A stretch of 64,000 bases of DNA, from positions 1,504,001 to 1,568,000 of the forward strand of contig OY970320.1 in NCBI GenBank assembly GCA_963716745.1, given 5' to 3'. A program made the position numbers and the translations under genes. Position 1 is the stretch's first letter; the number at the start of each line of letters is the position of its first letter. Shown in pieces: positions 12,170 through 64,000 of this stretch. This stretch comes from an uncultured Gemmatimonadaceae bacterium. GTDB lineage: Bacteria > Gemmatimonadota > Gemmatimonadetes > Gemmatimonadales > Gemmatimonadaceae. The notes beneath the pieces are model-generated. The model worked only from the letters and a program-made list of their open reading frames with translations. It did no database searches and was not told the DNA's origin.

Positions 12170-15100
12170 TTACCAGTCGAACCTCGCCGAGAACTGCAGC
12201 TGGTAGTACGAGTACACCGCATTCACGGTGGGGAACTGGATCATCGTCGGCTGGTACTGCACGATCGGGATCCCCGACTGCGGGTTCGCGCGGTTGATCG
12301 CCGCCGACTGGCCCGTCACGTTCAGGAGGGAGACGTCGGTGAAGGAGCTGCCGCCCGCCTGACGTACGAGGCCCCACGAGCCGTTGAGCATGTTCGGCAG
12401 ATTGAAGATGTCCAGGCGGAGCTGCACGTTGTGGCCGGCTGATGCGCGGGAGGTTCTGGATGATCGTTGCGTCCATTTGGTTGACCCAGGGATTCCGGCA
12501 CGCATCGCGCGGCAGGATCTCGCCCTGGTGGTCGCGCAAGCAGGGCGTGCTCTGGATCAGGTTATTCAGCGCGAGTTGCTGCGTGTTCACTGGCACCGCG
12601 GCGTGACTGCCGCTCGCCGGGATCGGTGAGAATTGCACCTGCGTGGGATCGAACACGTTCGTCGGCACGTAGATCAGGTCGTTCTGGTTGCCGTCGCCGT
12701 TCACGTCGCCGCGGCTTCCCGATCCGCCGTAGACGTAGTCGAACGTGGAGCCGGAGTAGCCCGAGTAGATGAGCGAGAAGTCCGTCCTCCAATTCTTCCA
12801 CGGGAATGTGTACGTGCCGGAGATCAGCAGCTTGTTCGGCTGGTCATACGCCGACGGCGTCAGGTTCTGCGCCAGAATATTGCCGCCTTCCTCGCGGCCG
12901 AACTGCCAGTTGGAGATCGCGCGGCTGGAATTGAGTGACGCCACGTCGTACGAGTGCGAGAACGTGTACGCCGCGCGCATGTCGAGCGAGCTGAACACGC
13001 GCTTGTGCAGCTCGACTGTCAGGTCGTACGCGTAATCCTTCGACTGGTTCACGATGTCGATCACTTCCGAGTACCGGTGCGAAGCATCGTACACGAACGT
13101 GGTGGGCACGCCCGAGGCGGCGATGTTGCCGTACATGTAGCGGCCGTTCCGGCCGATGTATGTCGAGTCGTAGTTGATGTTGCGGTTGACGTAGAAGAAG
13201 TTGTTCAGCCCGCGCGTATACAGTCCCTCGAGCGTCAGGAAGAAATCGCCCGGCAGACGCGTGTCGTACGCGAGATTCGCGCGGAAGACCTCGGGATACT
13301 TGAGGTTGTTGTCCATGATGTCCACCGGACCCACGACGCCGCCCGCAATGCCGGCGCCGTTCGGACACGTCTGCGGCGGCGACGCCACGGATCCCGCGTT
13401 GAATACCGGCGTGATCGGACCCGGATCGGTCGCTGCGGCCGCACATCAGGAACCCCAGGCCGCTGCCCGAGTTCTGCCAGGAATTCGCCACCCACACCAT
13501 TGCCGGCCGGCCGACGAACACACCGGCGCCGCCGCGGATCTGGTTCTTCTTCTCGCCATCGAGGTCCCAGTTGAAGCCGACGCGCGGCTCCCACTGGATG
13601 TTGCCGCTCGGCACCTGCGATGTGTTCGCCTGGCGGCCCATCGATTGGAAGAGGCCGCCGAAGATGGAATCGAAAGACGCCGTATACGGCGGCGAATTCG
13701 TGATCACCGGCACGTCAATGCGGAGGCCGAAGACCATGTTGAAATTCGGATTCGGCGTCCAGTTATTCTCGACATACGCGCCGTATGTGACGCCTTGCGG
13801 CTGGGCGACGATCGCGGGCGGATTGGTGAGCGGGAGAGAGACACGATAACGATTGGCGTTCCCCGCCTCGAGCGAATCGAGCGAGTTGAACGTCCACACG
13901 CCGTACGAACTCTCGGTGAACAGATTGGTGAACTGCCACAACTCCGCCGACACGCCGGCCGTCACGCGATTGTTGTCGCCGACGAAGAAGGAGTAGTTGT
14001 CCTTCAACTGCAGCATCTTCTGCTGCAGCGAATTGCCCTGTGAGAATTGCTCTGCGCCGCCGAGTTCACTGATCGTGGCGCTCTGGAGTCCGGGCACCGT
14101 CACATTGATCGTGGGGAACTGGCCGGCAATGGGCAGCCGCAGGTCCGAGATCGTCTGATAGGCGGCGATGAACTCGTTGCTCGATCCGCTCTGCATGGTG
14201 GAGTTGAGCTGCAACACCAAGCTGTTGTTGTTGTTGTTGATCGTGTAGAGTTGCGACGTCAGCGGGAACGTGGACGTGCGGCTGAATACGTCGATGCTGC
14301 CCCCGGCATAGTTGTCCCGCAGCGTGAGCGTGCTGTTGATCTCCGGGAGTGCGAGGTCCAAGCGTCCGAACGCGTTCGTGAGAGGATTCGCGTTGTTCGT
14401 CGCGCCGCCGGTGCCGGCCGGGATCCCCAGCGCCGTGAGATCGTTGATGAACCGCTGCGTGGTTGCCGAGTCCACCGTGAGCGGAGATGCGGCGCCCGGT
14501 GCCTGCCCGATATACGGGCCCGTGCTCGGCTGCGCGCGGAGCTGCCACTCGCCGTTCGCGAAGAACTGCAGCCGGTCCTTGATGATCGGGCCGGACACCG
14601 ACGCACCGTACTGCTCGACGTACAGGCCCGAATTCTGGATGAACGGCACATTCGCCGCGTAGTTCTGGTTACGGAAATAATAGAAGATGTCGCCGTCGAA
14701 TTCGTTCGTGCCGCTCTTGGTCACGGCATTCACGAGCGCGCCGTTGAAGCCCGAGAAATTCAGGTCGTACGGCGACAGCAGCACCTGATACTCCTTCACC
14801 GCGTCCAGCGAGATCGATTTCCCATTGGACTGGCCGCCCGGCTGACCGGTGCTGCCGAGGCCGAACATGTCGTTGCTGTTCGCGCCGTCGATCTGGATGT
14901 TGTTATAGCGGTTGTTCACGCCGCCCGCCGACGTCGAGCCGTTCGGCTGCGTGGCCACCTGCGGCACCGTGCTCATGAAGTCGGTGAAGTTGCGGTTCAG
15001 CGTCGGCGCACGCTTGAGGATGCTGTCATCCACGAGCGAGCCGGTGCCCTTCCGGTTCGGGTTGATCACCGGCGAGAGCTGGTTCCCCGCCTCGACCGTG

Positions 15101-15477
15101 ATCGCCGCGAGCGTGGCGGCCTGCGGAATGAGCTGGAAGTCCAGCACGGCGCGCTGGCTCAGCGAGAGACGCGCGATCTTATCCGACTTCGGCCGGAACC
15201 CGATGCGCCGCACCGTGACGGTGTACGGTTCGCCCACCTGGAGGCCGGACACGAAGTAGAGACCCGACGGCCGCGTCTGCACGGTCACCGACGCGCCGCT
15301 CGCGCCGCTCACGATCTGCACCTGCGCCGCTTCGACCGGCTCCTTCGTCGTGGAATCGGTCACGGTCCCTGAGATCGCCGCGGTCGTCGTCCCCTGGGCC
15401 GCGATGCGCGAAGGAACTGCGACAGCCGCCGTCACCGCCACTACGGCGAGAGCGCGCAGCCAACGAATTGTGATCAT
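12170..15477 (-). CDS. Oar-like TonB-dependent receptor with N-terminal carboxypeptidase-regulatory domain; frameshifts near 13440 and 12440
   Basis: Signal peptide, ISGTVTDS, NNIQIDGA, VNAVTKSGTNEF and EPRVGFNWD; continues through ORFs 12132-13388 and 12170-12505 and ends QFSARFDW (beta-barrel C-terminal signature). Confidence 0.88.
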
Positions 15478-15599
15478 GAGAGGACCTCTCCCTGGGTGAT
15501 GACAGGTGGGGCGAACGAGCGGGCCGGCGGTATACGCCGCCGCCGGGGGCGACGGGGCAAAACTATCTCGCCCACGGCTCGGGCGTCAAGAAACCAATA

Positions 15600-16955
15600 T
15601 CACCCTTCGGTAACGCTGTGCCCCTTCCCCACGGTAGCGTGATAGACCGGGATGCCTGCGACCACGGCGGCGAGCACACCGACAGTCGCCCAGCGGCTGC
15701 TCGCGTCGATGATCGCGTTCGCGAGCAGCGCGATGGTGCTCGCGATGAACAGCAGCGGCACCACCGGATAGCCCGGCACGCGGAAGGGCGGATCGTAGTC
15801 CGCGCGCTTGCGCAGGCGGAAGATCGCGGCGACGCCGAGCGCGAGGAACGGCACGATCGCGATCACGAATGCGTCGGCCAACTGCTCGAACGTGCGCATC
15901 AGCACGAACGCGATGCCGAGGCATGCGGAAAGGATGATAGCCCGGCTCGGCGTGTGGAACCTCGGATGCACGCGCGCGATCGCGCCGAAGAGCAGGCCAT
16001 CGTCGGCCATCGCGAAGAAGATGCGCGGCGCCGTCATGATCGACCCGTTGAGCGTGCCGAAGGTGGAGAGCATCACGGTGACGGACACGAGGATCACTCC
16101 GGCGGGCCCGACGAGCCGCTCCGCGACATCGGCGGCCACGAGCTTCGAGCGCGCGATCTGTCCAACATCGAGCACCGCGAGATAGGCGAGGTTCGCGAGG
16201 AGATAGATGGCGACCACCGCCACCGTGCCGATGATGATCGCGCGCGGCATCACGCGGCGCGGCTCGCGCACTTCGCCTGCGACGAACGTCACGTCCTCCC
16301 AGCCATCGTACGCCCAAAGTACCGAAACGAGCGCGAGGCCGAACAGTCCGATGCTGAAGCTGCCGGGTGGCGTGAGCGGCGTGTAGTGTCCGCCGCCGTT
16401 CGGCAATCCCACCGCGAACGCGAGCATGACGATGAAGAGCAGGCCGCCGTACTTCGCGAGCGTGGTGAGGTTCTGCACGAGCGAACCCCAGCGCAGACCG
16501 ACGTAGTTGAACGTTGCCGTGAGCGCGATCGCGACGGCGGCCACCCAATGGACGTACGTGGAATACGGCGCGACCGACGTGTCGTGCCCCAGCACGCGGA
16601 GGAAATACTCGGCGAACGTCGTGGAGATCGCGCCGTAGCTCGCGGCGCGGATGATCACGAGTTCGGACCAGCCGAACAGGAACGCGGTGCGCCGGCCCCA
16701 CGCCTCGCGCAGGAACACGTAGATGCCGCCCGTCTGCGGGAACGCGCCGGCGATCTCCGCGAGCGTGAGCGCGCCGCAGAGCGCGAACGCGCCGCCGGCG
16801 AACCATACGGCGAGCAGGGGGAGCGGACCGGGCAGTTTGGTCGCAATGCCCGCCGGCGAACGGAAGATCCCGGAGCCGATCGTGGAGCCGATGAGCACCG
16901 CCGTGGCGCTCCACAGACCGAGTTGCCGAGGGAGTTTTCCGGGTGTGTCGCTCAT
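15600..16955 (-). CDS. APC-family amino acid permease
   Basis: IGSGIFRSP, AEIAGAFPQTGGIYVFL, WAYDGW and VHPRFHTP; about 12 TM segments. Confidence 0.9.
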   Translation of the reverse strand: MSDTPGKLPRQLGLWSATAVLIGSTIGSGIFRSPAGIATKLPGPLPLLAVWFAGGAFALCGALTLAEIAGAFPQTGGIYVFLREAWGRRTAFLFGWSELVIIRAASYGAISTTFAEYFLRVLGHDTSVAPYSTYVHWVAAVAIALTATFNYVGLRWGSLVQNLTTLAKYGGLLFIVMLAFAVGLPNGGGHYTPLTPPGSFSIGLFGLALVSVLWAYDGWEDVTFVAGEVREPRRVMPRAIIIGTVAVVAIYLLANLAYLAVLDVGQIARSKLVAADVAERLVGPAGVILVSVTVMLSTFGTLNGSIMTAPRIFFAMADDGLLFGAIARVHPRFHTPSRAIILSACLGIAFVLMRTFEQLADAFVIAIVPFLALGVAAIFRLRKRADYDPPFRVPGYPVVPLLFIASTIALLANAIIDASSRWATVGVLAAVVAGIPVYHATVGKGHSVTEG

Positions 16956-17012
16956 GCGCGGGAACATACGCGGCGCCGCGCGATGGGGCGAGAGCATCGC
17001 CGTTGACCCACT

Positions 17013-17258
17013 ATGAGCGCCGTGGCACCTTTCGTGCCTATGCGTGATGCCTTTTTCTGGTGCGCGGTCGCGAGCTGTGTCGCGGGTCAGGCGCTCATCC
17101 TGCGCTCGGCGGTGCGCGCGCGCGCCCGCACCGCGAGCGGCGCGACGCCCGTTGGCGTGCCCGCGCCGCGCGCAGTCCCGGAGTTCGCGTGGACCGTGCT
17201 GCCGGCCGTCGGCCTCGCCGCGGTGCTGGTGTTCACGTGGCGCGCGATGCATCCGTGA
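17013..17258 (+). CDS. Small two-TM membrane protein with a CoxB-like EFAWTVLP helix (alternative start 17040)
   Basis: Stop overlaps the ctaA GTG start (GTGA); two hydrophobic segments. Confidence 0.55.
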   Translation: MSAVAPFVPMRDAFFWCAVASCVAGQALILRSAVRARARTASGATPVGVPAPRAVPEFAWTVLPAVGLAAVLVFTWRAMHP

Positions 17259-18224
17259 GCATTCCCACGTCGTTGCGCGCGTTCCTGCGCGCCTCGCTCG
17301 CCCTCGCGGTGGTGCACATCATGTTCGGCGGCTTCGTGCGGATCTCCGGATCCGGCATGGGCTGCGGCGAGCACTGGCCCATGTGCCAGGGCGCGTGGTT
17401 CCCGCCGATGAGCAACTCGACGCTCGTGGTCGAGTGGACGCACCGGTTGATCGGGCTCATCCTCACGGTGACCATCGCGGCCACGGCGTTCGCGGCATAT
17501 CGCGCTCGTGGTGAAGCCGGTGTCGGTGGCAAAGGCGGCGTGCTTCGCCCGGCCGTCGCGGCGCTCGCGATCGTGATCGCCACCGCGCTCTTCGGCGCGG
17601 TCACGGTGTTCTTCCAGAATGCGCCGCTGGCCACGATGGTGCACTGGGTGCTCGCCGCCTCGCTACTCGCGACGCTCGCCGAGGCGCTCGTTCGCGCCGG
17701 CGACCTCGGCGGCGGCGCCCCCGCGAGCGCGCCGGCGAAATTGTTTCGCGGCACGGCGGCGGCCGCTGCGCTCGCACTGCTGGTGCTCATCTTCGGCGGT
17801 CTCACCGCGAAGGTGCCGGGCGCGAACGTCGTCTGCGGATCGTTCCCGCTGTGCGGAACATCGGCGGGCTCGCCGATCATCGAGCATCTCGTGCGGATCC
17901 AGAATGACGCACCGCGTGCTCGCGCTCCTCCTGTTCCTGCACGTCCTCGGGTTGGTGATCACCACGCGGAGGATCACCGGCGCACCCGCCGCCGTGCGCG
18001 GCGTGCGCGTGATGTTCGCGCTGGTGCTGGTGCAGCTGCTCATCGCCGGCGCGATGATCGGCATGCATCTGCCGCCGGCACTGCGGTCGCTGCACCAGAT
18101 GGATGGCGTGCTGATCTGGCTCACGTCGGTGGTGACGGCATCGCTCGCGTATCGCGCATCGCCGGCAATGGCGCCGCTGCCGCCGAGCATCGCGGTGATC
18201 ATCGCGCGCGGAGGTGGCATGTGA
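17255..18224 (+). CDS. ctaA: Heme A synthase (COX15/CtaA); frameshift near 17895
   Basis: GGFVRISGSGMGCGEHWPMC, EWTHRL, second half continuing in ORF 17619-18224 (MTHRVLA, LHQ); adjacent to ctaB. Confidence 0.85.
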
Positions 18225-54063: not shown

Positions 54064-54190
54064 TCCGAAGGAGGACAGGTGGGGGTCCGCGGCCGCAACG
54101 AAGCGCGCGCGCCGCTCGCATCGGCGGGCGCGGCGCATAAGTTAACCGCGGTGGCATTCGGGCCACGCGCAAGTTACCCAATCCGTGATC

Positions 54191-55306
54191 ATGGCCTCGT
54201 CAGCATTTCCCTCACGCGTGGCCGTCGTGCTCGGCGGCGGCGGACTCAAGGGATTCTCGCATATCGGCGTGCTGCGCGCGCTCAAGCAGCGCGGCATCCG
54301 GCCGTCACTCTACGCGGGCACCAGCATCGGCGCGCTCATCGCCGCCGCGCGCGCCGCCGGCATCAGCCTCGACGAGATGGAAGCGCGCGCGCGCGCGCTG
54401 CAGAAGACGGATCTCTTCCGGATCAATCATCTCGCGATGCTGCTCGAGCGCATGAAGAGCCCATCGCTCTATCACGAAGAGCCGCTGCGCGAACTCTGCC
54501 GGCTCAACGCGCCGGCCGGCACCTTCGAAGACCTCAAAGTGCCGCTCCTCGTGAACACGGTGGACGTCGAGCGCGGCACGCGCGTGGTCTGGGGGCTGCC
54601 CGGACTCCGCAATGTGTCGGTCGCGGATGCCATCTACGCGTCGTGCGCACTACCCGGTTTCTTCCCGCCCGGCATCATCGGTGGCCGCCCGTGCATCGAC
54701 GGCGGCACGGTGGACAACCTTCCTGCCGCCATCGCCGGACTCGGCGCCGAGATGGTGATCGCCGTGGACGTCGGGACGACGAGCCTCGGCCTCGCGCGGC
54801 TCATCCGCCGCCAGGGATTCGCCGCGATCTACATGCGCGCCGCGTCGATCATGATGCACGCGCTGCAGTTGCAGCCGCTGGCCGAGTGGTCGGGGCCGCC
54901 GATGCTGCTCATCCGGCCGGACGTCGCGCATCGCGACATGTTCAGCTTCGTGCACACCGAGGAGCTGATCGAGGCGGGGTACAGCGCCACGATCGCGGCG
55001 CTCGACCAGGTGGCCGACCAGGAGCTGAAGCACGGCGTGATCTATCCGCGCCGCCGCGTGAACGTGCTCGTGGACCGCGAGAAATGCACCGGCTGCGGGA
55101 TCTGCGTGTCGCTCGCGCCCGACCGGATCGTGCTCGACATGGAGAACAAGGCCGTGATCGCGAACCCGGTGATGGAATGGAGCCCGGCGGACGGTGACTT
55201 CGTGCAGCAATGTCCGTTCGAGGCGATATCCGTGCACTCGCTGGACGGCACGCGGCGGACGACGAAGCCGATCACGCAGCCGATGGCGGTGGCAGCGGAG
55301 GACTAG
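54191..55306 (+). CDS. Patatin-like phospholipase fused to a C-terminal 4Fe-4S ferredoxin
   Basis: GGGGLKG, GTSIG and DGG; then DREKCTGCGICVSLAP...QQCPFEAI. Confidence 0.88.
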   Translation: MASSAFPSRVAVVLGGGGLKGFSHIGVLRALKQRGIRPSLYAGTSIGALIAAARAAGISLDEMEARARALQKTDLFRINHLAMLLERMKSPSLYHEEPLRELCRLNAPAGTFEDLKVPLLVNTVDVERGTRVVWGLPGLRNVSVADAIYASCALPGFFPPGIIGGRPCIDGGTVDNLPAAIAGLGAEMVIAVDVGTTSLGLARLIRRQGFAAIYMRAASIMMHALQLQPLAEWSGPPMLLIRPDVAHRDMFSFVHTEELIEAGYSATIAALDQVADQELKHGVIYPRRRVNVLVDREKCTGCGICVSLAPDRIVLDMENKAVIANPVMEWSPADGDFVQQCPFEAISVHSLDGTRRTTKPITQPMAVAAED

Positions 55307-58151: not shown

Positions 58152-58267
58152 AACTGCAAGCCGGGAACCGATTGCCGGGAACCGATGAGGAACAAAAAAT
58201 GATTCCCTTACGACAGGGAATAGGTGGTCATGCCTCACCGGTTCCCGGCAACCGGTTCCCGGTAGTT
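58152..58267. repeat. Palindromic element, 30-bp arms (28/30), 14-nt periodic, AACTGC...GTAGTT termini
   Basis: CCGGGAACCGATTGCCGGGAACCGATGAGG (58161-58190) inverted at 58233-58262; inner hairpin ATTCCCT/AGGGAAT. Confidence 0.85.
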
Positions 58268-59025
58268 CAGCTCTTGGACTTCCCGTTCCTCGCGCGTAGC
58301 TCCGCCGCGATTACCCAGCTGCGCCACACGGCCGTTCCCACGCTCGCGGCGCCGATCACGGTCACGGCGGCGATGAGGACCGACGACTCCGGCCAGCCGA
58401 AGTACTCGCACACCGGGTTGTCCAGCATCGACGCGATCGCGAGCAGCACGAGGCGCTCCGCGCGCTGCATCACGCCGCCCTTGCAATCCACGCCCACGGC
58501 CGCGCCCTTCGCGCGCGAGTAGCTCACCATCATCGCGCCGCCGAGCGCCACGACGGTGCTCAGCATCGCCCAGCGGGAGGGCTCGAAGTAGAGCGCGAGT
58601 CCCATGAACACGAACATCTCCGAGAACCGGTCGATGATCGAGTCGAGGAATTCGCCGTAATCGCTCCCCACGCCACGGGCGCGCGCGACGCGGCCGTCGA
58701 GCACGTCGGCGAGTCCGCCGAGCAGCACGAAGGTGCCGCCGAGCGCGATCGCGCCCTGCGAATACGCAACGCCGGCGGCGAGGCCCAGCGCGCCGCCGCC
58801 GAAGTTCAGCAGGTCGGGCGACACGTTCACGCGCACGAGCGCGCGTTCGACCGGGGTGATCACCCACATCAGCCAGTCGCGCACCCGAATGCCCAGCAGG
58901 AGAGTCGAGGGACGCCTCGCCACGTCGGCGTCCACCGGACGTCCGCGCGCGACGACGGCGTACACCGGCATCGTGAGCAGGAAGGCGAACGCGAGAGAAA
59001 CGGCAATGTAGGTGCTCGGCGTCAT
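58267..59025 (-). CDS. CDP-alcohol phosphatidyltransferase (PIP/PGP synthase-like)
   Basis: VSPDLL, DVLDGRVAR...GEFLDSIIDR, VSYSRAKG and GVMQRAER. Confidence 0.9.
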   Translation of the reverse strand: MTPSTYIAVSLAFAFLLTMPVYAVVARGRPVDADVARRPSTLLLGIRVRDWLMWVITPVERALVRVNVSPDLLNFGGGALGLAAGVAYSQGAIALGGTFVLLGGLADVLDGRVARARGVGSDYGEFLDSIIDRFSEMFVFMGLALYFEPSRWAMLSTVVALGGAMMVSYSRAKGAAVGVDCKGGVMQRAERLVLLAIASMLDNPVCEYFGWPESSVLIAAVTVIGAASVGTAVWRSWVIAAELRARNGKSKS

Positions 59026-60029
59026 GTAGAGCGACGGCGTTGAGGTCTCGTGCGAAGATAGCGGAATACGCGCGGCCAGAGGAATATGAGCGGCCAGCGA
59101 CGCTCGCGCAATGTGAGTTGCACCATGGTTCCGGACCGGCGCTCTACCTTCTGGACGACGTACTCGAGCCAGTCGTCATAGAGCAGTACGTACTTCACCC
59201 AGCGGAGCGTTGCCCGGCGCTTGCTGCGCGCGAAATAGCGGACCCATGCGCGCCGTTCGCGCGCTGGAACGGGCGTCAAAAGACGGTAGACTTTTCCCTC
59301 TTTTTTGATTATCTTTAAATGCTCAAGCCGTTGCAGCAGTTCGCGATAGACCGGCGCCAGCGACTCCCGTTGTGCGCCGGTCAGCGTTTCGATCCGGTCG
59401 GCGGTCTCGGGCCGGATCTCGGCGGCGAACGAACGCGCGAGCGACGCACGAATGTAGTCGGCGCTGTCGAAGGCGGCGGGCAGGAAGGAGAGGCTCCAAT
59501 CGCTCGTGCGCGCACGGGCGGCGGCCAGCGAAGCGATCACGGCGTCCCGGTCTTCGGGCGCGGCGGTCCATGCGAGCTGGACGTGCTGGAAGAGGCGCCC
59601 CTGCGCGAAGTGGTCCTGCGCGCCCGCCGAAGTGGCGAGGGCGAGGGCCTCCCGGGAGAGCACGGCGCACTTGGCGAGAGCCGGCGGCGTGAGTTCCGGG
59701 AAGGCAATGGCGATGACGTTGGGCGCGAGCACGCGATTGAGGCGTGCGGCGCTGGAAGGTTTGAGTTTGGTGCCGCGCGAGGCGGCGAGCGCGGTGTACG
59801 CCGCATCGTAGTCTCGCACGATGATGAAGAAGTCGAACGCGCTTTCCGCTTTCGCGCCGGATCGTTGGGCGTGCGAGCCGTAGTGGATGATGGCCGAACA
59901 GGCGGTGCCGAACGACTCGGCGAGCGCTCGCGCGATGCGCGCGGCGGCGGGGTCGGGCGGTTCGAAGATGTCGGATGTGAACGCGGCGGTCGCGCCGGGC
60001 TCGGCGAGCATGGTGTCGGCGAGCGTCAC
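59022..60029 (-). CDS. Pol-beta-fold nucleotidyltransferase, Tam41-like (putative cytidylyltransferase)
   Basis: IIHYGSH...AFDFFIIVRDY motif, plus GRLFQ and SFAAEIRPE; coupled to both neighbours. Confidence 0.6.
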   Translation of the reverse strand: MTLADTMLAEPGATAAFTSDIFEPPDPAAARIARALAESFGTACSAIIHYGSHAQRSGAKAESAFDFFIIVRDYDAAYTALAASRGTKLKPSSAARLNRVLAPNVIAIAFPELTPPALAKCAVLSREALALATSAGAQDHFAQGRLFQHVQLAWTAAPEDRDAVIASLAAARARTSDWSLSFLPAAFDSADYIRASLARSFAAEIRPETADRIETLTGAQRESLAPVYRELLQRLEHLKIIKKEGKVYRLLTPVPARERRAWVRYFARSKRRATLRWVKYVLLYDDWLEYVVQKVERRSGTMVQLTLRERRWPLIFLWPRVFRYLRTRPQRRRST

Positions 60030-60856
60030 GCGGCAGCGCCGGAACGGATGCGCTCGAGCGTCGTCACCATGTTCGAGCGCAGCATGTCGAGGAATGCGTC
60101 GGCATCTTCGGGAGCGGGCGGTTGGAACGGGCCCGAGACGACGACGTGGATGTGGCAGTTGGCGATGGATTCGAGGGCATCGGTGAATGTTCGGGCCCCC
60201 CAGAGTCCGTCGGCAACTATGGTATATACTGGCTGTTGTGCGTGTGTCACGATGAGGCGGGGACCTTGCCGCATGAAGCGGCCGATCTGGCCGTCGCGTG
60301 TGCGATGACCCTCGGCGTAAATGAGCAGCGAGTTCCAGCCTTTCGCGACGCGTGAGGCGGCTTCACTCAGTGAATCGAGATCCTGCTGGATCGCCGATGG
60401 TTTCTGCGTGATGAAGGGGAAGCGCCCCATGCGCAACGTCGGCGAGATGAACGGGATCTTCCATTTGTAGCGGTCGCGGGTAGGAAAGAGCGGCGAGTGA
60501 TCGCCGAAGAGCACCACCGCGACGGGGATGTCGAAGATGGACTGGTGGTTCATGATCGCGACGACGGGCGCATCGGGGAGTTTCCCCTCGACCGTGATGC
60601 GAACGCCGGCCGCGTAGCGGGCGACGAAGAGCAGAGGCACGCATTGCAGGCGCAGCCAGCGCCCGTACCATCTGGCTCGGCGCTCGGGTGACGGAGCGAG
60701 CGTGAGCAGCGGCCAGACGATGAGACGCTGCACGATCGCACAGAGGCCGCAGAGGTAGGGCAGGAATATGATGAAGAAGAGCGAGCCGCGGACCGCGCGG
60801 ATCGCCCGCTCCAGGCGGCTCTTCGCCCGGGGTGATGCTATCGGTACTGAAGTCAT
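60026..60856 (-). CDS. PlsC-type lysophospholipid acyltransferase
   Basis: NHQSIFD (HxxxxD) and YAEGHRT blocks. Confidence 0.88.
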   Translation of the reverse strand: MTSVPIASPRAKSRLERAIRAVRGSLFFIIFLPYLCGLCAIVQRLIVWPLLTLAPSPERRARWYGRWLRLQCVPLLFVARYAAGVRITVEGKLPDAPVVAIMNHQSIFDIPVAVVLFGDHSPLFPTRDRYKWKIPFISPTLRMGRFPFITQKPSAIQQDLDSLSEAASRVAKGWNSLLIYAEGHRTRDGQIGRFMRQGPRLIVTHAQQPVYTIVADGLWGARTFTDALESIANCHIHVVVSGPFQPPAPEDADAFLDMLRSNMVTTLERIRSGAAA

Positions 60857-60884
60857 GCCGCAGTGAATAATTGGAGGTCACATC

Positions 60885-62165
60885 ATGGCGATCCGCATGG
60901 AACCGCAAACGGCGATGAACCCGCTCGACTACGACTATAGCAGTTTCTTCTATTCGTCGAGCGACGATCCGTTCGCGATCCTCGAACCGTATAACGAATG
61001 GTACAACCGCGCCGTGCCGGAGGGCTACTACCTCTTCGGCCAGCCGATCTCGACGCCGCCCGGCGGGCACGTGATGCTCACCGAGATGCGCGACCAGAAG
61101 ACGCTGCAGCTGCTCAACCTCAGCTCGTACAACTACCTCGGCCTGTCGTCGCGCGCGGAAGTGATCGCGGCCGCGAAGGCCGCGCTCGACCAGTACGGCC
61201 TCGGCGCCGCCGGCTCGCCCATCCTCAGCGGCACGATGGATGTGCACATGCAGCTCGAGGAAGCGCTGGCCAAGTTCAAGCGGAAGGAAGCCGTCATGGT
61301 CTTCCCCACCGGTTACAGCACGAACATCGGATTGATCTCGGGCCTCATGCGCCCGGGCGATTGGGTGATCGCCGACCAGAACTCGCACGCGAGCATCGTG
61401 GACGGAGCCATCCTCTCGAAGGCGGACGTGCGCTTCTTTAGGCACAACAATCCGGTGGACCTCGAGAAGAAGCTGCAGAAGGTGAAGGGAAAGAAGGTGC
61501 TCGTCGCCATCGAAGGCGTGTACTCAATGGACGGCGATGTCTGTCCGCTCCCCGAGCTCGTGGCCGTCGCCAAGAAGTACGGCGCGCGCATCCTGCTCGA
61601 CGAAGCGCACTCCGCGTTCGTGTACGGTGAGAACGGCCGCGGTGTGGCCGAGCAGTACGGGCTGGAGGACGAGGTCGACATGCACGTCGGCACGTTCTCG
61701 AAGGCGCTCGGCGGACAGGGCGGCTACGTCGCCGGTTCGAAGAATCTCTACAACTACCTGAAGGGCTTCGCGCGTTCGCGCGTGTTCTCCTGTGCGCTGT
61801 CGCCGGTGGTCGCGGCGGGCGTGCTCAAGAGTCTCGAGATCGCGCAGGCCGAGCCGCAGCTGAGAGCGCAGCTCTGGAAGAACGTGGCACATATCCGCGG
61901 CCGTCTCGAAGAGGCGGGCGTGGACATCGGCGACTCCACGTCGCAGGTGATCCCGATCATGGTGAAGAACGACCGCCGCGTGTTCGAGCTGGGGCACAAG
62001 CTCCTCCGCGCCGGCCTGTACCTGCAGCCGATCATCTATCCCGCAGTGGCAAAGCACCGGTCGCGGTTCCGGGTCTCCATCTCGGCCTCGCATACCACCG
62101 ACCAGCTCGACGAGGGCGTCGCGATCCTCGTCAAGGTTCTCCGCGAAGAGGGCATTCTCGTATGA
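60885..62165 (+). CDS. Alpha-oxoamine synthase, serine palmitoyltransferase-like
   Basis: GGAGGT RBS; SYNYLGL, PTGYSTN, SHASIVDG, EGVYSMDGD, DEAHS and GTFSKALG; long N-terminal extension. Confidence 0.85.
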   Translation: MAIRMEPQTAMNPLDYDYSSFFYSSSDDPFAILEPYNEWYNRAVPEGYYLFGQPISTPPGGHVMLTEMRDQKTLQLLNLSSYNYLGLSSRAEVIAAAKAALDQYGLGAAGSPILSGTMDVHMQLEEALAKFKRKEAVMVFPTGYSTNIGLISGLMRPGDWVIADQNSHASIVDGAILSKADVRFFRHNNPVDLEKKLQKVKGKKVLVAIEGVYSMDGDVCPLPELVAVAKKYGARILLDEAHSAFVYGENGRGVAEQYGLEDEVDMHVGTFSKALGGQGGYVAGSKNLYNYLKGFARSRVFSCALSPVVAAGVLKSLEIAQAEPQLRAQLWKNVAHIRGRLEEAGVDIGDSTSQVIPIMVKNDRRVFELGHKLLRAGLYLQPIIYPAVAKHRSRFRVSISASHTTDQLDEGVAILVKVLREEGILV

Positions 62166-62857
62166 GCACGAGCAAAGAGGGTTACGTCCAGTATCACTAC
62201 CGCAATGCCATCGGCGGTTTCTTCGAATTCCCCACGGAGAACGCGAGGGCCATCCTGCCGCCCGAGCTGCAGCCGATCGAGCCGCACCACGGCTCGAGCG
62301 TGCTCTCGGTCATGGCGTTCGACTTCACCAACAGCCCGGTGGGCGACTACGGCGAGCTGATCCTGTCGATCCTCGTCGCGCCGCGCATCGAGCCGGGGCA
62401 ACCAATGCCGCGGAGCGCGTTCTACCCGTTCCGCCTCGGCACCACGACGCGTGAGTCGCGCGAGCACGCCATCGAGCGCTGGCACCTGCCGCACTACATG
62501 CAGGACATCGGCATCCGCTGGGTGCGCGGCAATGGGCACATCACCATCCATGCTACGGATCGCGGCCAGCCGATCGTCGACATGACGATCACCGAGCATG
62601 AGTGGTCGAACGTGGAGCATCGCTATCAGGCGTTCATGAACGACGAGGAGGGCGCGTACACCTCCACGATCATCATGGCGAGCCAGTTCAGCGAGAACGA
62701 GGAGGAGCGTGGCGGCATCACGATCCACTCGCAGGCGATGACCGACCTGCTCGCCGACTGGGATGTGGACTTCAAGCCGTTCCGTGAGCTCTGGATGAAG
62801 AACGGCCTGCAGACCTTCCACCCGCTCCAGACGCTGGCGAGTTACGCGAAGCGATGA
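62162..62857 (+). CDS. Acetoacetate decarboxylase-fold protein
   Basis: ARAILPPELQP, DFTNSPVGDYGEL and AIERWHLPH (the position of the family Lys appears to be His). Confidence 0.65.
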   Translation: MSTSKEGYVQYHYRNAIGGFFEFPTENARAILPPELQPIEPHHGSSVLSVMAFDFTNSPVGDYGELILSILVAPRIEPGQPMPRSAFYPFRLGTTTRESREHAIERWHLPHYMQDIGIRWVRGNGHITIHATDRGQPIVDMTITEHEWSNVEHRYQAFMNDEEGAYTSTIIMASQFSENEEERGGITIHSQAMTDLLADWDVDFKPFRELWMKNGLQTFHPLQTLASYAKR

Positions 62858-63750
62858 GCGGCCGCGTCGCCGTCATCGTCAACCCCGCCTCCGGTAGGGG
62901 GCGGGGGGCGAGGACGGCGGAGCGGATCCACCGCGCATTCGCGGATGTGGGCGTCACCGACATCCGGTTCACCACGGCGCCTGGGCAGGAGCGAGAGCTC
63001 GCGGCCCAGGCGCTTCGCGATGGGGCCACGACCATCGTGGCCTGCGGCGGCGACGGCACGTGGAGCAATGCGGCGAACGCCATCGTGGCGGCGAAGAGCT
63101 CGTGCCGCCTCGCGATCGTGGCGGCCGGCACCGGCAACGATTTCGCGAAATCGCTCAAGATACCGGCCACCGACATCGAGCAGATGGCGCGACTCGCGGT
63201 GGATGGTCCCGACACGCCGATCGACGTGGGCCGCATCGAGGACCGCTACTTCCTGAACATCACGGGCTTCGGATTCGACATCGCCGTGCTCGAGGACATC
63301 GAGAGCATCTGGTGGCTGCGCGGCTACCTGCTCTACAAGTACTCCGCACTCAAGCAGCTGCTCAGCTACAAGGGGCTGATGGTGGACATCGCGAGTCCCG
63401 CCAAGCCGCGCGGCATGAAGCAGCATCTCATGGTGATCGTGGCGAACGCGCGGTATTTCGGCGGAACCTTCGTGATCGCGCCGAACGCCGATCTCGCCGA
63501 CGGGAAGCTCGATCTCATCGCCATCCACGACGCGTCGCCGATCCAGCGCGCCAACTTGTTCGGCGCCGTGGGCAAGGGCACGCACATGACGCACCCCAGC
63601 GTGGATGCGGAACAGTCGTCATCGTTCACGATGCGTTTCGCCGAACCGCCGGCGTACGAGACCGACGGCGAGTACAACCGCGCGAAGAGCGCCGTGCTCG
63701 AGATCACGACCGTGCCCCGCGCGCTGCGGCTCGTGGTGCCGGCGAAATGA
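62854..63750 (+). CDS. Diacylglycerol/sphingosine kinase family (YegS/DAGKc)
   Basis: IVNPASG, GGDGT, GTGNDFA, NARYFGG and ETDGE. Confidence 0.92.
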   Translation: MSGRVAVIVNPASGRGRGARTAERIHRAFADVGVTDIRFTTAPGQERELAAQALRDGATTIVACGGDGTWSNAANAIVAAKSSCRLAIVAAGTGNDFAKSLKIPATDIEQMARLAVDGPDTPIDVGRIEDRYFLNITGFGFDIAVLEDIESIWWLRGYLLYKYSALKQLLSYKGLMVDIASPAKPRGMKQHLMVIVANARYFGGTFVIAPNADLADGKLDLIAIHDASPIQRANLFGAVGKGTHMTHPSVDAEQSSSFTMRFAEPPAYETDGEYNRAKSAVLEITTVPRALRLVVPAK

Positions 63751-64000
63751 AGGCGATCTCCTTCGCGGCGCCGATCCCGACGTACCTCGCGACGCTCGCC
63801 GCCGGCAAGATCTCCGACCGGTTCTATGTGGGCCCGTACGCCTGCACCACCTATGGCGACCGCGAAGCGCCCGCGCTGCCAAGCGACCGCTGGGTGCGGC
63901 TCCGTACGCGCATGGGCGGCATCTGCGGCAGCGACATCAACGTCGTCACGCTCGGCGCGAGTCCATCCAATTCGCCCTTCTCGAGCTTCCCCTTCGTGCT
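63747..64000 (+). CDS. Zinc-binding (MDR) dehydrogenase, 5' part only
   Basis: ATG overlaps the kinase stop; my translation gives MKAISFAAP...WVRLRTRMGGICGSD...FSSFPFV, running off the window. Confidence 0.8.
   Translation, partial: MKAISFAAPIPTYLATLAAGKISDRFYVGPYACTTYGDREAPALPSDRWVRLRTRMGGICGSDINVVTLGASPSNSPFSSFPFV

Follow-up and report, generated by a model that had tools for sequence, protein, structure and literature searches.

A divergent seven-gene cluster of Gemmatimonadota with a putative CDP-activated route to a sphingolipid-like phospholipid

A divergent cluster and its proposed pathway

Which lipid could be made by a bacterium that encodes an alpha-oxoamine synthase (AOS) back to back with genes for lipid activation and head-group transfer? 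The question is raised by seven genes at the end of a 64,000-nucleotide stretch (the window) from an uncultured soil bacterium of the Gemmatimonadaceae (contig OY970320.1, forward-strand positions 1,504,001 to 1,568,000; G000:C1:1504001-1568000 in our sample), whose 3.29-Mb single-contig genome is rated 89.8% complete. An initial annotation, made from the letters alone, had proposed that this organism makes a headgroup-modified sphingolipid by a variant route. We put at about even the chance that the seven genes form one pathway for a sphingolipid-like phospholipid whose head group is attached through a CDP-activated lipid. This reading builds on observed gene order, folds, motifs and co-inheritance, and on the exclusion of BioF and Kbl as identities of the AOS.

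All seven open reading frames (ORFs) and the two divergent, translationally coupled arms of the initial annotation were recovered, with three genes on the minus strand and four on the plus strand. PIP and AIP stand for phosphatidylinositol phosphate and archaetidylinositol phosphate, and ADC for acetoacetate decarboxylase:

58202..58221, minus strand: terminator-like stem-loop and T run, directly 3′ of the CDP-alcohol transferase stop (consensus match; L001 2221-2202)
58267..59025, minus strand: CDP-alcohol phosphotransferase, PIP/AIP-synthase type, 252 aa; PF01066 47.8 bits (cut-off 22)
59022..60029, minus strand: Tam41-fold nucleotidyltransferase (predicted structure), 335 aa, GTG start; proposed CTP:lipid-phosphate cytidylyltransferase
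60026..60856, minus strand: PlsC/LPLAT-type acyltransferase, 276 aa; PF01553 48.3 bits, TIGR00530 29.5 bits (below cut-off)
60857..60884, unstranded: intergenic spacer between the divergent arms, 28 bp; GGAGG 8 nt 5′ of the AOS ATG
60885..62165, plus strand: AOS, 426 aa; PF00155 203.8 bits; N-terminal extension of about 70 aa
62162..62857, plus strand: ADC-fold protein, 231 aa; PF06314 29.8 bits (equal to cut-off), supported by the fold
62854..63750, plus strand: YegS/DgkB/BmrU-family lipid kinase, soluble, 298 aa; PF00781 107.5 bits, PF19279 89.4 bits
63747..64000 and on to window-equivalent 64819, plus strand: Zn-dependent medium-chain dehydrogenase, 357 aa; ADH_N 75.1 bits, ADH_zinc_N 50.7 bits

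At each of the five gene junctions, stop and start codons overlap by 4 bp (four ATGA, one GTGA). The starts of the arms are separated by 28 bp, in which a promoter scan found no sigma-70-like promoter. High third-position GC in all seven frames indicates that each is coding, and Pfam and NCBIfam support five of the seven family assignments. The cluster genes are intact in the window; the dehydrogenase, already seen to continue past its edge, ends 819 bp beyond. The stem-loop probably marks the end of the left operon; terminator-like sites overall are not enriched relative to shuffled sequence, and the hairpin is a consensus match. Genes upstream (aconitase, patatin, transporters) and downstream (peroxiredoxin-like, MOFRL, CN-hydrolase and agmatine-deiminase-like) are unrelated to the cluster, which we therefore delimit at seven genes. 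As first annotated, bio, hem or kbl genes were not encountered around the cluster.

The substrates and the order of all steps are what we infer from these features. The AOS would first form an alpha-amino ketone by condensing a long-chain acyl thioester with an amino acid, for which serine is the leading candidate. The Zn-dehydrogenase would then reduce the 3-keto group to an amino alcohol by the chemistry of threonine dehydrogenase, which as the classic partner of the AOS Kbl offers a parallel for this second step. In the third step the PlsC-type enzyme would add a second acyl chain, and in the fourth the soluble YegS/DgkB-type kinase would phosphorylate the free hydroxyl to form a lipid phosphate. 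The Tam41-fold enzyme would use CTP to turn the latter into a CDP-lipid (step 5), from which the PIP-synthase-like transferase would move the phospho-lipid onto an alcohol (step 6), most likely myo-inositol 1-phosphate from the genome's own myo-inositol-phosphate synthase (MIPS). The ADC-fold protein would work together with the AOS. A wider version of this proposal is more tentative: Gemmatimonadota, together with one or more genomes from a different phylum, may possibly make an inositol phosphosphingolipid-like lipid by a pathway in the style of CDP-diacylglycerol (CDP-DAG), carried out on a sphingoid backbone by the kinase, a divergent Tam41-type enzyme (forming CDP-ceramide or a CDP-long-chain base), a PIP-synthase paralogue and a separate AOS clade that would function only together with a lysine-less ADC-fold partner. 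A full-text literature search found no paper on CDP-ceramide.

Proposed lipid-phosphate activation and the head-group transferase

The activation step hinges on the 335-aa protein, annotated initially as Tam41-like. By sequence family this name finds no support: no Pfam or NCBIfam match was obtained even at E 10, PF09139 (Tam41_Mmp37) matched nothing when run against the entire genome with E values up to 1, and a profile of the protein's family against PDB sequences returned a single match (0.048), to a minimal nucleotidyltransferase. At the level of fold, however, the name stands. An AlphaFold (AF2) model built from 32 relatives (pLDDT 87.5) retrieved chains of the Tam41 entries 7ecd, 6ig4 and 6ig2 as the top five Foldseek rows (E about 1e-6). 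VIA-align superposed it on the bacterial Tam41-CTP complex 7ecd with a Z-score of 20.8 (243 residues, rmsd 2.9) and on mitochondrial Tam41 (6ig4, 6ig2) with 17.5-18.0, the next family reaching 7.5. The two-domain fold and the YGS...D nucleotidyltransferase motif, invariant in the family of the 335-aa protein, are common to it and to the Tam41/Mmp37 CDP-DAG synthases (7ecd from Firmicutes; 6ig2 and 6ig4 mitochondrial), from which it differs by an identity of 13-14% and by going undetected with PF09139. Judged by the model, the protein has the Tam41 fold. Since the genome encodes two canonical CdsA genes, it would not be the housekeeping CDP-DAG synthase, and the fold together with the CdsA pair points to a special lipid phosphate as substrate.

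In the transferase encoded next to it, the motif DxxDGxxAR...GxxxDxxxD is intact (alignment to 6h53). Its best family and best solved matches are mycobacterial and archaeal PIP/AIP synthases (6h53, 6wm5, 5d91; NF045883, NF040950), led among solved structures by Mycobacterium tuberculosis PIP synthase 6h53 at 74 bits. It differs from these enzymes in lying below both equivalog cut-offs. A second CDP-alcohol transferase of the genome, 33% identical to the cluster copy, directly adjoins the MIPS gene elsewhere and scores 158.1 of the 170 bits needed on the PIP-synthase model. PIP/AIP synthases keep the inositol-phosphate acceptor while the CDP-lipid donor varies (DAG or archaeol). On this likeness the head group would probably be inositol phosphate.

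Upstream of the activation step, the kinase has DAGK_cat and YegS_C domains and exceeds the TIGR00147 cut-off (144.6 versus 118.65 bits), with DgkB 2qv7 as best solved match (79 bits). The PlsC-type protein carries an HQSIFD (HX4D) motif and a hydrophobic N-terminus.

These closest characterised relatives (DgkB, Tam41, PIP synthase, the PlsC family) are glycerolipid enzymes, which raises the alternative that the cluster makes a glycerolipid with a special head group. The kinase would then convert DAG to phosphatidic acid (PA), the PlsC-type protein lyso-PA to PA and the Tam41-like enzyme PA to CDP-DAG, and the transferase would couple CDP-DAG either with inositol phosphate or with a soluble amino alcohol supplied by the AOS, ADC-fold protein and dehydrogenase. 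An AOS, a beta-keto-acid-decarboxylase fold and a dehydrogenase resembling threonine dehydrogenase could conceivably make such a small amino alcohol, although the ADC-fold protein lacks the catalytic lysine and the sister clade of the AOS is fused to a fatty-acyl-AMP ligase and an acyl carrier protein (ACP), which argues for a long acyl chain. The pair of Tam41-like and transferase genes also occurs without an AOS; against this, a second plain route to CDP-DAG and phosphatidylinositol (PI) would be redundant because the genome already has two CdsA genes and the MIPS-linked PIP-synthase-like gene. We consider the glycerolipid route unlikely.

The sphingolipid-like reading has a precedent in the cpgABC genes beside spt in Caulobacter crescentus, where a DAGK-type kinase, a protein with a CDP-DAG-synthase domain and a CDP-alcohol transferase likewise lie near an AOS. 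In the published account, CC_1160 is a ceramide kinase by assay, CC_1161 has the CDP-DAG-synthase domain and is proposed by the authors to form NDP-ceramide, and CC_1159 has the CDP-alcohol transferase domain, the order of steps being left unresolved there (PMC11324152). Our kinase, Tam41-fold protein and transferase mirror CC_1160, CC_1161 and CC_1159, respectively, and the cluster has both the cpgABC-type gene content and the AOS linkage, as compared with that published description (PMC11324152). The initial annotation had drawn the Caulobacter parallel, naming the ceramide kinase and the CDP-alcohol phosphotransferase, but had overlooked the published counterpart of the Tam41-like step (PMC11324152).

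The cluster differs from the Caulobacter genes in several ways. It belongs to another phylum and its AOS to another clade. Its transferase is of PIP/AIP-synthase type, which makes inositol phosphate the probable head group instead of phosphoglycerate. It has no ACP, acyl-ACP synthetase, bCerS or CerR, and adds the ADC-fold protein, the PlsC-type acyltransferase and the Zn-dehydrogenase. The absence of bCerS, CerR and a dedicated ACP from the seven genes had been pointed out at the outset and is borne out.

In Bacteroides thetaiotaomicron, BT_1522-BT_1526 combine MIPS with a PIP-synthase-type transferase that has the same catalytic motif, and the product is an inositol phosphosphingolipid; there the AUR1-like BT_1522 transfers inositol phosphate from PI-DAG to ceramide, and a lipid kinase or Tam41-like step does not figure in the cluster described (PMC9246714). 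The Gemmatimonadota cluster has no AUR1-like gene, and its route would instead pass through a CDP-activated sphingoid lipid. Our verdict is that the cluster is a variant of the cpg-type logic for sphingolipid head groups, set apart by the clade of its AOS, by an ADC-fold partner that lacks the lysine, and by an acyltransferase of PlsC type and a transferase of PIP-synthase type. A CDP-activated head-group route has so far only been hinted at, in Caulobacter.

If true, the proposal would add a third way of placing a phospho head group on a sphingolipid, via a CDP-activated lipid, the other two being transfer with a glycerophospholipid as donor and the Caulobacter route, itself not yet resolved. 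It would provide a compact operon of five to seven genes, with no transport genes, for testing the proposed NDP-ceramide step, and a case of a Tam41-type enzyme recruited to a non-glycerolipid substrate.

Linkage and distribution of the two arms

Do the two arms belong together? We followed them in 201 sampled Gemmatimonadota genomes, the window's own (G000) counted, an AOS at 55% identity or more being taken as an orthologue (the next best match has 45%). These tallies include one genome flagged unpublished (G157) and, for the AOS count, three others so flagged (G057, G097, G182). The Tam41-like gene was found in 20 of the 201 genomes, G000 included; without G000, it is in 6/38 genomes of family f1, 12/23 of f7 and, as a weak match, 1/96 of f2, and in none of the other nine sampled families. 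The AOS orthologue occurs in 19/201. Both markers coincide in 17 genomes, that is, in 17 of the 22 with either; the AOS stands without a detected Tam41-like gene in G055 and G085, and the Tam41-like gene alone in G098, G157 and G197 (weak).

A pattern scan over the species genomes of GTDB recovered 125 relatives. The 80 best were used; all come from metagenome-assembled genomes (MAGs), and their labels are Gemmatimonadota or a taxon within it in 78 cases, Longimicrobiaceae in one and Vicinamibacterales in one (on a 3.3-kb contig). Relatives of cluster proteins that carry a name are all Gemmatimonadota or Gemmatimonadaceae MAGs. The CDP-alcohol transferase gene lies 3′ of the Tam41-like gene in all 73 loci with enough room. 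In the 57 loci whose relevant flank extends over 3900 nt or more, plsC is present in 46, the AOS in 47, the ADC-fold gene in 47 and the kinase in 49; where at least 5000 nt were available, the dehydrogenase is present in 39/54 and plsC, AOS, ADC and kinase together in 43/54.

The strongest evidence that the arms form one pathway comes from outside the phylum. In the phylum of the 'Vicinamibacterales' genome G206, three of 201 genomes matched, G206 included, and in one of them (G266) AOS, ADC, kinase, Tam41-like and transferase genes lie co-directionally in a single row on a 61-kb contig, with identities to the window copies of 58%, 49%, 47%, 35% and 46%, respectively. The cluster is widespread in uncultured Gemmatimonadota (two families) and was also met outside the phylum, in at least one genome.

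Such a row speaks against the alternative that the arms are separate modules with nothing but a promoter region in common. In that case the right arm would make a phosphorylated long-chain base or ceramide phosphate as its end product, and the left would be an auxiliary pathway through PA and CDP-DAG to PIP. The modules do occur singly: the Tam41-like and transferase pair is alone in 10/57 loci, and AOS, ADC and kinase, with or without the dehydrogenase, stand by themselves in G055 and G085, beside glycosyltransferase/PAP2 or sugar-nucleotide genes. Yet both arms are kept in 17 of the 22 marker-bearing genomes, and two loci (L089, L093) join dehydrogenase and kinase directly to the Tam41-like and transferase pair. 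We hold the two-module explanation to be quite unlikely, and keep the single pathway as the preferred reading.

Variants of the cluster are instructive in themselves. In L089 and L093, dehydrogenase and kinase are followed by a 555-aa protein and face the Tam41-like and transferase pair. This protein (P0241, L089 5011-6678(-); likewise in L093) replaces ADC, AOS and PlsC and matched no Pfam or NCBIfam family. In L097 the Tam41-like and transferase pair is followed by an OleD-like short-chain dehydrogenase/reductase and a PlsC-type acyltransferase; an aminotransferase at this locus was considered as the AOS and rejected, being methionine-aminotransferase-like. The G055 arm (L107) adjoins a GT4 glycosyltransferase and PAP2, and the G085 arm (L106) genes for a DegT aminotransferase, a UDP-sugar dehydrogenase, a GFO/IDH/MocA-type oxidoreductase and a hexapeptide transferase; these two arms may make a glycosylated version of the lipid. 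In the f7 locus L015, an 1171-aa IcmF-like fusion of B12-binding, MeaB and methylmalonyl-CoA-mutase parts lies directly 3′ of the kinase (14342-17857 (+)); it could supply a branched acyl-CoA or be unrelated. Split hits were seen in 94-95% identical MAG loci, for kinase and plsC in L024 and for AOS, plsC and the CDP-alcohol transferase in L025.

The oxoamine synthase and its ADC-fold partner

For the first step, the nature of the AOS is decisive. K273 (within GTFSK) and R396, which we take to be the pyridoxal-phosphate-binding lysine and the carboxylate-binding arginine, are invariant in 20 orthologues. The best PDB matches are bacterial serine palmitoyltransferases (SPTs), from S. multivorum (304 bits) and from S. 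wittichii and S. paucimobilis (253-260), followed by Kbl (240), Thermus BioF/Kbl (237), ALAS (231) and human SPTLC2 (223), with Escherichia coli BioF (181) and CqsA (121) lowest. The SPT-like motifs of the initial annotation, YNYLG, SHASIVDG and GTFSK, are all present but only the first is specifically shared with Sphingomonas SPTs: YNYLG is common to the AOS, its fused relatives (below) and, as YNYMG, the Sphingomonas SPTs, whereas in Kbl, BioF and CFB-type proteins N replaces the first Y of YNY[LM]G. SHASIVDG is found in BioF and Kbl too, and GTFSK is common to the AOS and CFB-type proteins while the fusions, its nearest relatives, have GTLSK. Comparison of these motifs gave no assignment of the substrate.

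A quick IQ-TREE phylogeny of 82 rows comprised the window AOS, its paralogue from the same genome, 20 Gemmatimonadota orthologues, two AOSs of the type found in family f2, 52 stand-alone proteins (383-465 aa) and two fusion domains from 150 listed representatives, E. coli BioF and Kbl, and two Bacteroidota records; other multi-domain representatives were left out. The window AOS falls in a 22-row clade (support 96) made of the Gemmatimonadota orthologues and P0243. The sister of this clade (support 99) is P0244 with P0246, which by Pfam are PP-binding + AOS and AMP-binding + PP-binding + AOS fusions, respectively; this architecture implies a fatty-acyl substrate. A branch with support 98 separates the AOS side from a 22-row group that includes the BioFs labelled by NCBIfam together with E. 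coli BioF and Kbl, as well as a Bacteroidota-type SPT-like clade. The phylogeny thus sets the enzyme apart from BioF and Kbl, as the initial annotation had expected, but sets it apart from the Bacteroidota-type SPT-like group as well. The single other AOS of the genome (33% identical) lies beside a Zn-dependent alcohol dehydrogenase (ADH) and groups with E. coli Kbl (support 99).

That the AOS is a housekeeping BioF or Kbl in a coincidental neighbourhood is very improbable and largely refuted: bioF (TIGR00858) is nominally its top NCBIfam profile and automatic JGI names of its relatives read 'glycine C-acetyltransferase' or '8-amino-7-oxononanoate synthase', but its scores stay below the cut-offs (366.4 of 426.45 bits for bioF, 351.6 of 460 for Kbl), neither bioB nor bioA reaches its cut-off in the 89.8%-complete genome (best 38 of 225 and 322 of 405), a separate Kbl exists beside its Zn-ADH, the tree splits the AOS from both enzymes and its lipid-gene neighbours are conserved in two families and in another phylum as well. 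Both identities were rejected. By sequence, the AOS would be a long-chain-type enzyme with SPT affinities, not a demonstrated SPT.

The ADC-fold gene is always found 3′ of the AOS. This includes the relocated AOS of G117 and G113, which is present but unlinked and has a second ADC-fold paralogue behind it, while the first stays with the kinase and precedes it. (The copies at L110 7806-8468(-) and L111 9701-10375(+) are 34-38% identical to the window copy.) A phmmer search of the protein against PDB sequences gave chance matches only and a protein-cluster search returned ADC-named clusters only. Its AF2 model (pLDDT 91.6) superposes on acetoacetate decarboxylase 3bh2 with a Z-score of 22.4 (206 residues, rmsd 2.7) and on 3cmb, MppR, Swit_4259 and the S. 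bingchenggensis enzyme with 19.8-20.7, the next fold reaching 7.7. The beta-cone fold of the acetoacetate decarboxylase family (3bh2; MppR 4jm3; Swit_4259 5upb; Sbi_00515 4zbo) is shared over 200-206 residues at 10-15% identity. A Schiff-base lysine is common to the characterised members of that family and defines it. In contrast, no invariant or near-invariant lysine was found among 23 sequences of the cluster protein's family, in which Y63, E65, R100, L109, P110, E178, E180-182, R208 and E209 are invariant; the Schiff-base mechanism therefore cannot hold for this protein.

What the protein does instead can be framed as two candidate roles: a partner bound to the AOS, which would take up the hydrophobic product and pass this on to the soluble kinase, or an enzyme that works on the beta-keto intermediate without needing the lysine. 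Complex prediction for AOS and ADC-fold protein lends weak support to a physical partnership (median score 0.52, best control 0.00; runs agreeing in at least 64% of contacts, partner pLDDT at least 85), since in the benchmark passes at or below 0.60 comprised 18 of 157 solved complexes and both of two passing mismatches, and are more often wrong than right unless the pairing was likely beforehand. A literature search for acetoacetate decarboxylase with oxoamine synthase or serine palmitoyltransferase found nothing relevant. If the proposal is true, oxoamine synthases would gain in this protein a new type of subunit, accessory or catalytic, and a job would be defined for an ADC-fold protein unable to use the lysine chemistry of its family.

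The dehydrogenase is of polyol/threonine-dehydrogenase type, its best PDB matches being RspB, xylitol dehydrogenase and sorbitol dehydrogenase, and its NCBIfam scores (IolM 100 bits, TDH 91 bits) reach no cut-off. Polyol and threonine dehydrogenases act beside a 2-amino or 2-hydroxy carbon, which would be the position reduced by a 3-ketosphinganine reductase. The kbl-tdh pair (E. coli b3617-b3616; C1:2576027-2578184 in the window's own genome) likewise joins an AOS to a Zn-dependent medium-chain dehydrogenase, and the latter acts on the 3-position next to the 2-amino carbon; the cluster differs in that its dehydrogenase is below the TDH cut-off and its AOS belongs to another clade than the 33% identical Kbl of that pair.

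Several observations weigh against the sphingolipid-like pathway. The cluster holds no ceramide synthase of known type (bCerS, Lag1), and PlsC-type enzymes are mostly O-acyltransferases. None of the SPT equivalogs is reached by the AOS (NF047600, SPT-CFB, 361 of 640 bits; NF047599, SPT-beta, 350 of 500; NF047603, SPT-alpha, 295 of 670), and the bioF, SPT-CFB and Kbl profiles are nearly equal on it (366, 361 and 352 bits). The AOS lies outside the Bacteroidota-type SPT-like clade, in a tree without SPTs from alpha- or beta-proteobacteria or eukaryotes and without ALAS and CqsA. The transferase falls below the AIP-synthase (131.4 bits, cut-off 180) and PIP-synthase (111.8, cut-off 170) models, and inositol phosphate as acceptor is guessed from likeness to that family. 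The modules can live apart, as seen above: five genomes with the Tam41-like and transferase pair only have no AOS orthologue, and conversely L107 and L106 have AOS, ADC and kinase with no Tam41-like gene detected. Neither the f7 loci nor the operon of G266 contain the dehydrogenase. Finally, the role of the ADC-fold protein is unexplained by this reading. The variant-route sphingolipid of the initial annotation is accordingly supported in part, for the set of kinase, Tam41-fold protein and transferase linked to an AOS, but not for the AOS as an SPT, which has SPTs as best PDB matches yet passes no SPT cut-off.

Gemmatimonadota are among the commonest soil phyla and almost uncultured. Among the papers listed by our literature search, none was found linking Gemmatimonadota or Gemmatimonadetes to sphingolipids, serine palmitoyltransferase or bCerS, in line with the earlier remark that sphingolipids are undescribed for the lineage. 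A text search of a Gemmatimonadota review returned no lipid terms (PMC8779627), and a report on a marine isolate lists phosphatidylethanolamine, phosphatidylglycerol, diphosphatidylglycerol and an unidentified aminolipid (PMC11651109). The pathway, if true, would bear on how long-chain bases, inositol lipids and other environmental lipid biomarkers are interpreted in soils. DNA runs from soil and rhizosphere matched the stretch with small shares (0.31 at most); no RNA run was listed.

A different AOS was met in family f2, where all 96 sampled genomes gave an AOS match (those listed are 38-45% identical to the window AOS). Two f2 copies (L108 8368-9570(-), L109 8259-9593(-)) score 535-540 bits on the SPT-CFB-type model (cut-off 640; next model 416-425) and group with the Bacteroidota-type SPT-like clade. 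They are followed by a 406-475-aa protein (L108 7229-8656(-), L109 7141-8361(-)), with a weak GNAT match in L109 only, and a PAP2 phosphatase gene lies beside the AOS in L108 (9561-10376(+)). This f2 locus resembles a ceramide pathway of more canonical kind within the phylum, undescribed in the searched literature.

Two minor observations concern the neighbourhood of the cluster. Two genes upstream, at window 54185-55306 (+), lies a 373-aa patatin-like phospholipase with a C-terminal 4Fe-4S ferredoxin domain. Downstream, three ORFs (L001 9345-9665, 10209-11294 and 12684-13289, window-equivalent 65345-69289) cover only later parts of their Pfam profiles (AhpC 46-123, DUF4147 108-233, PAD_porph 157-321) and may be genes broken by frameshifts.

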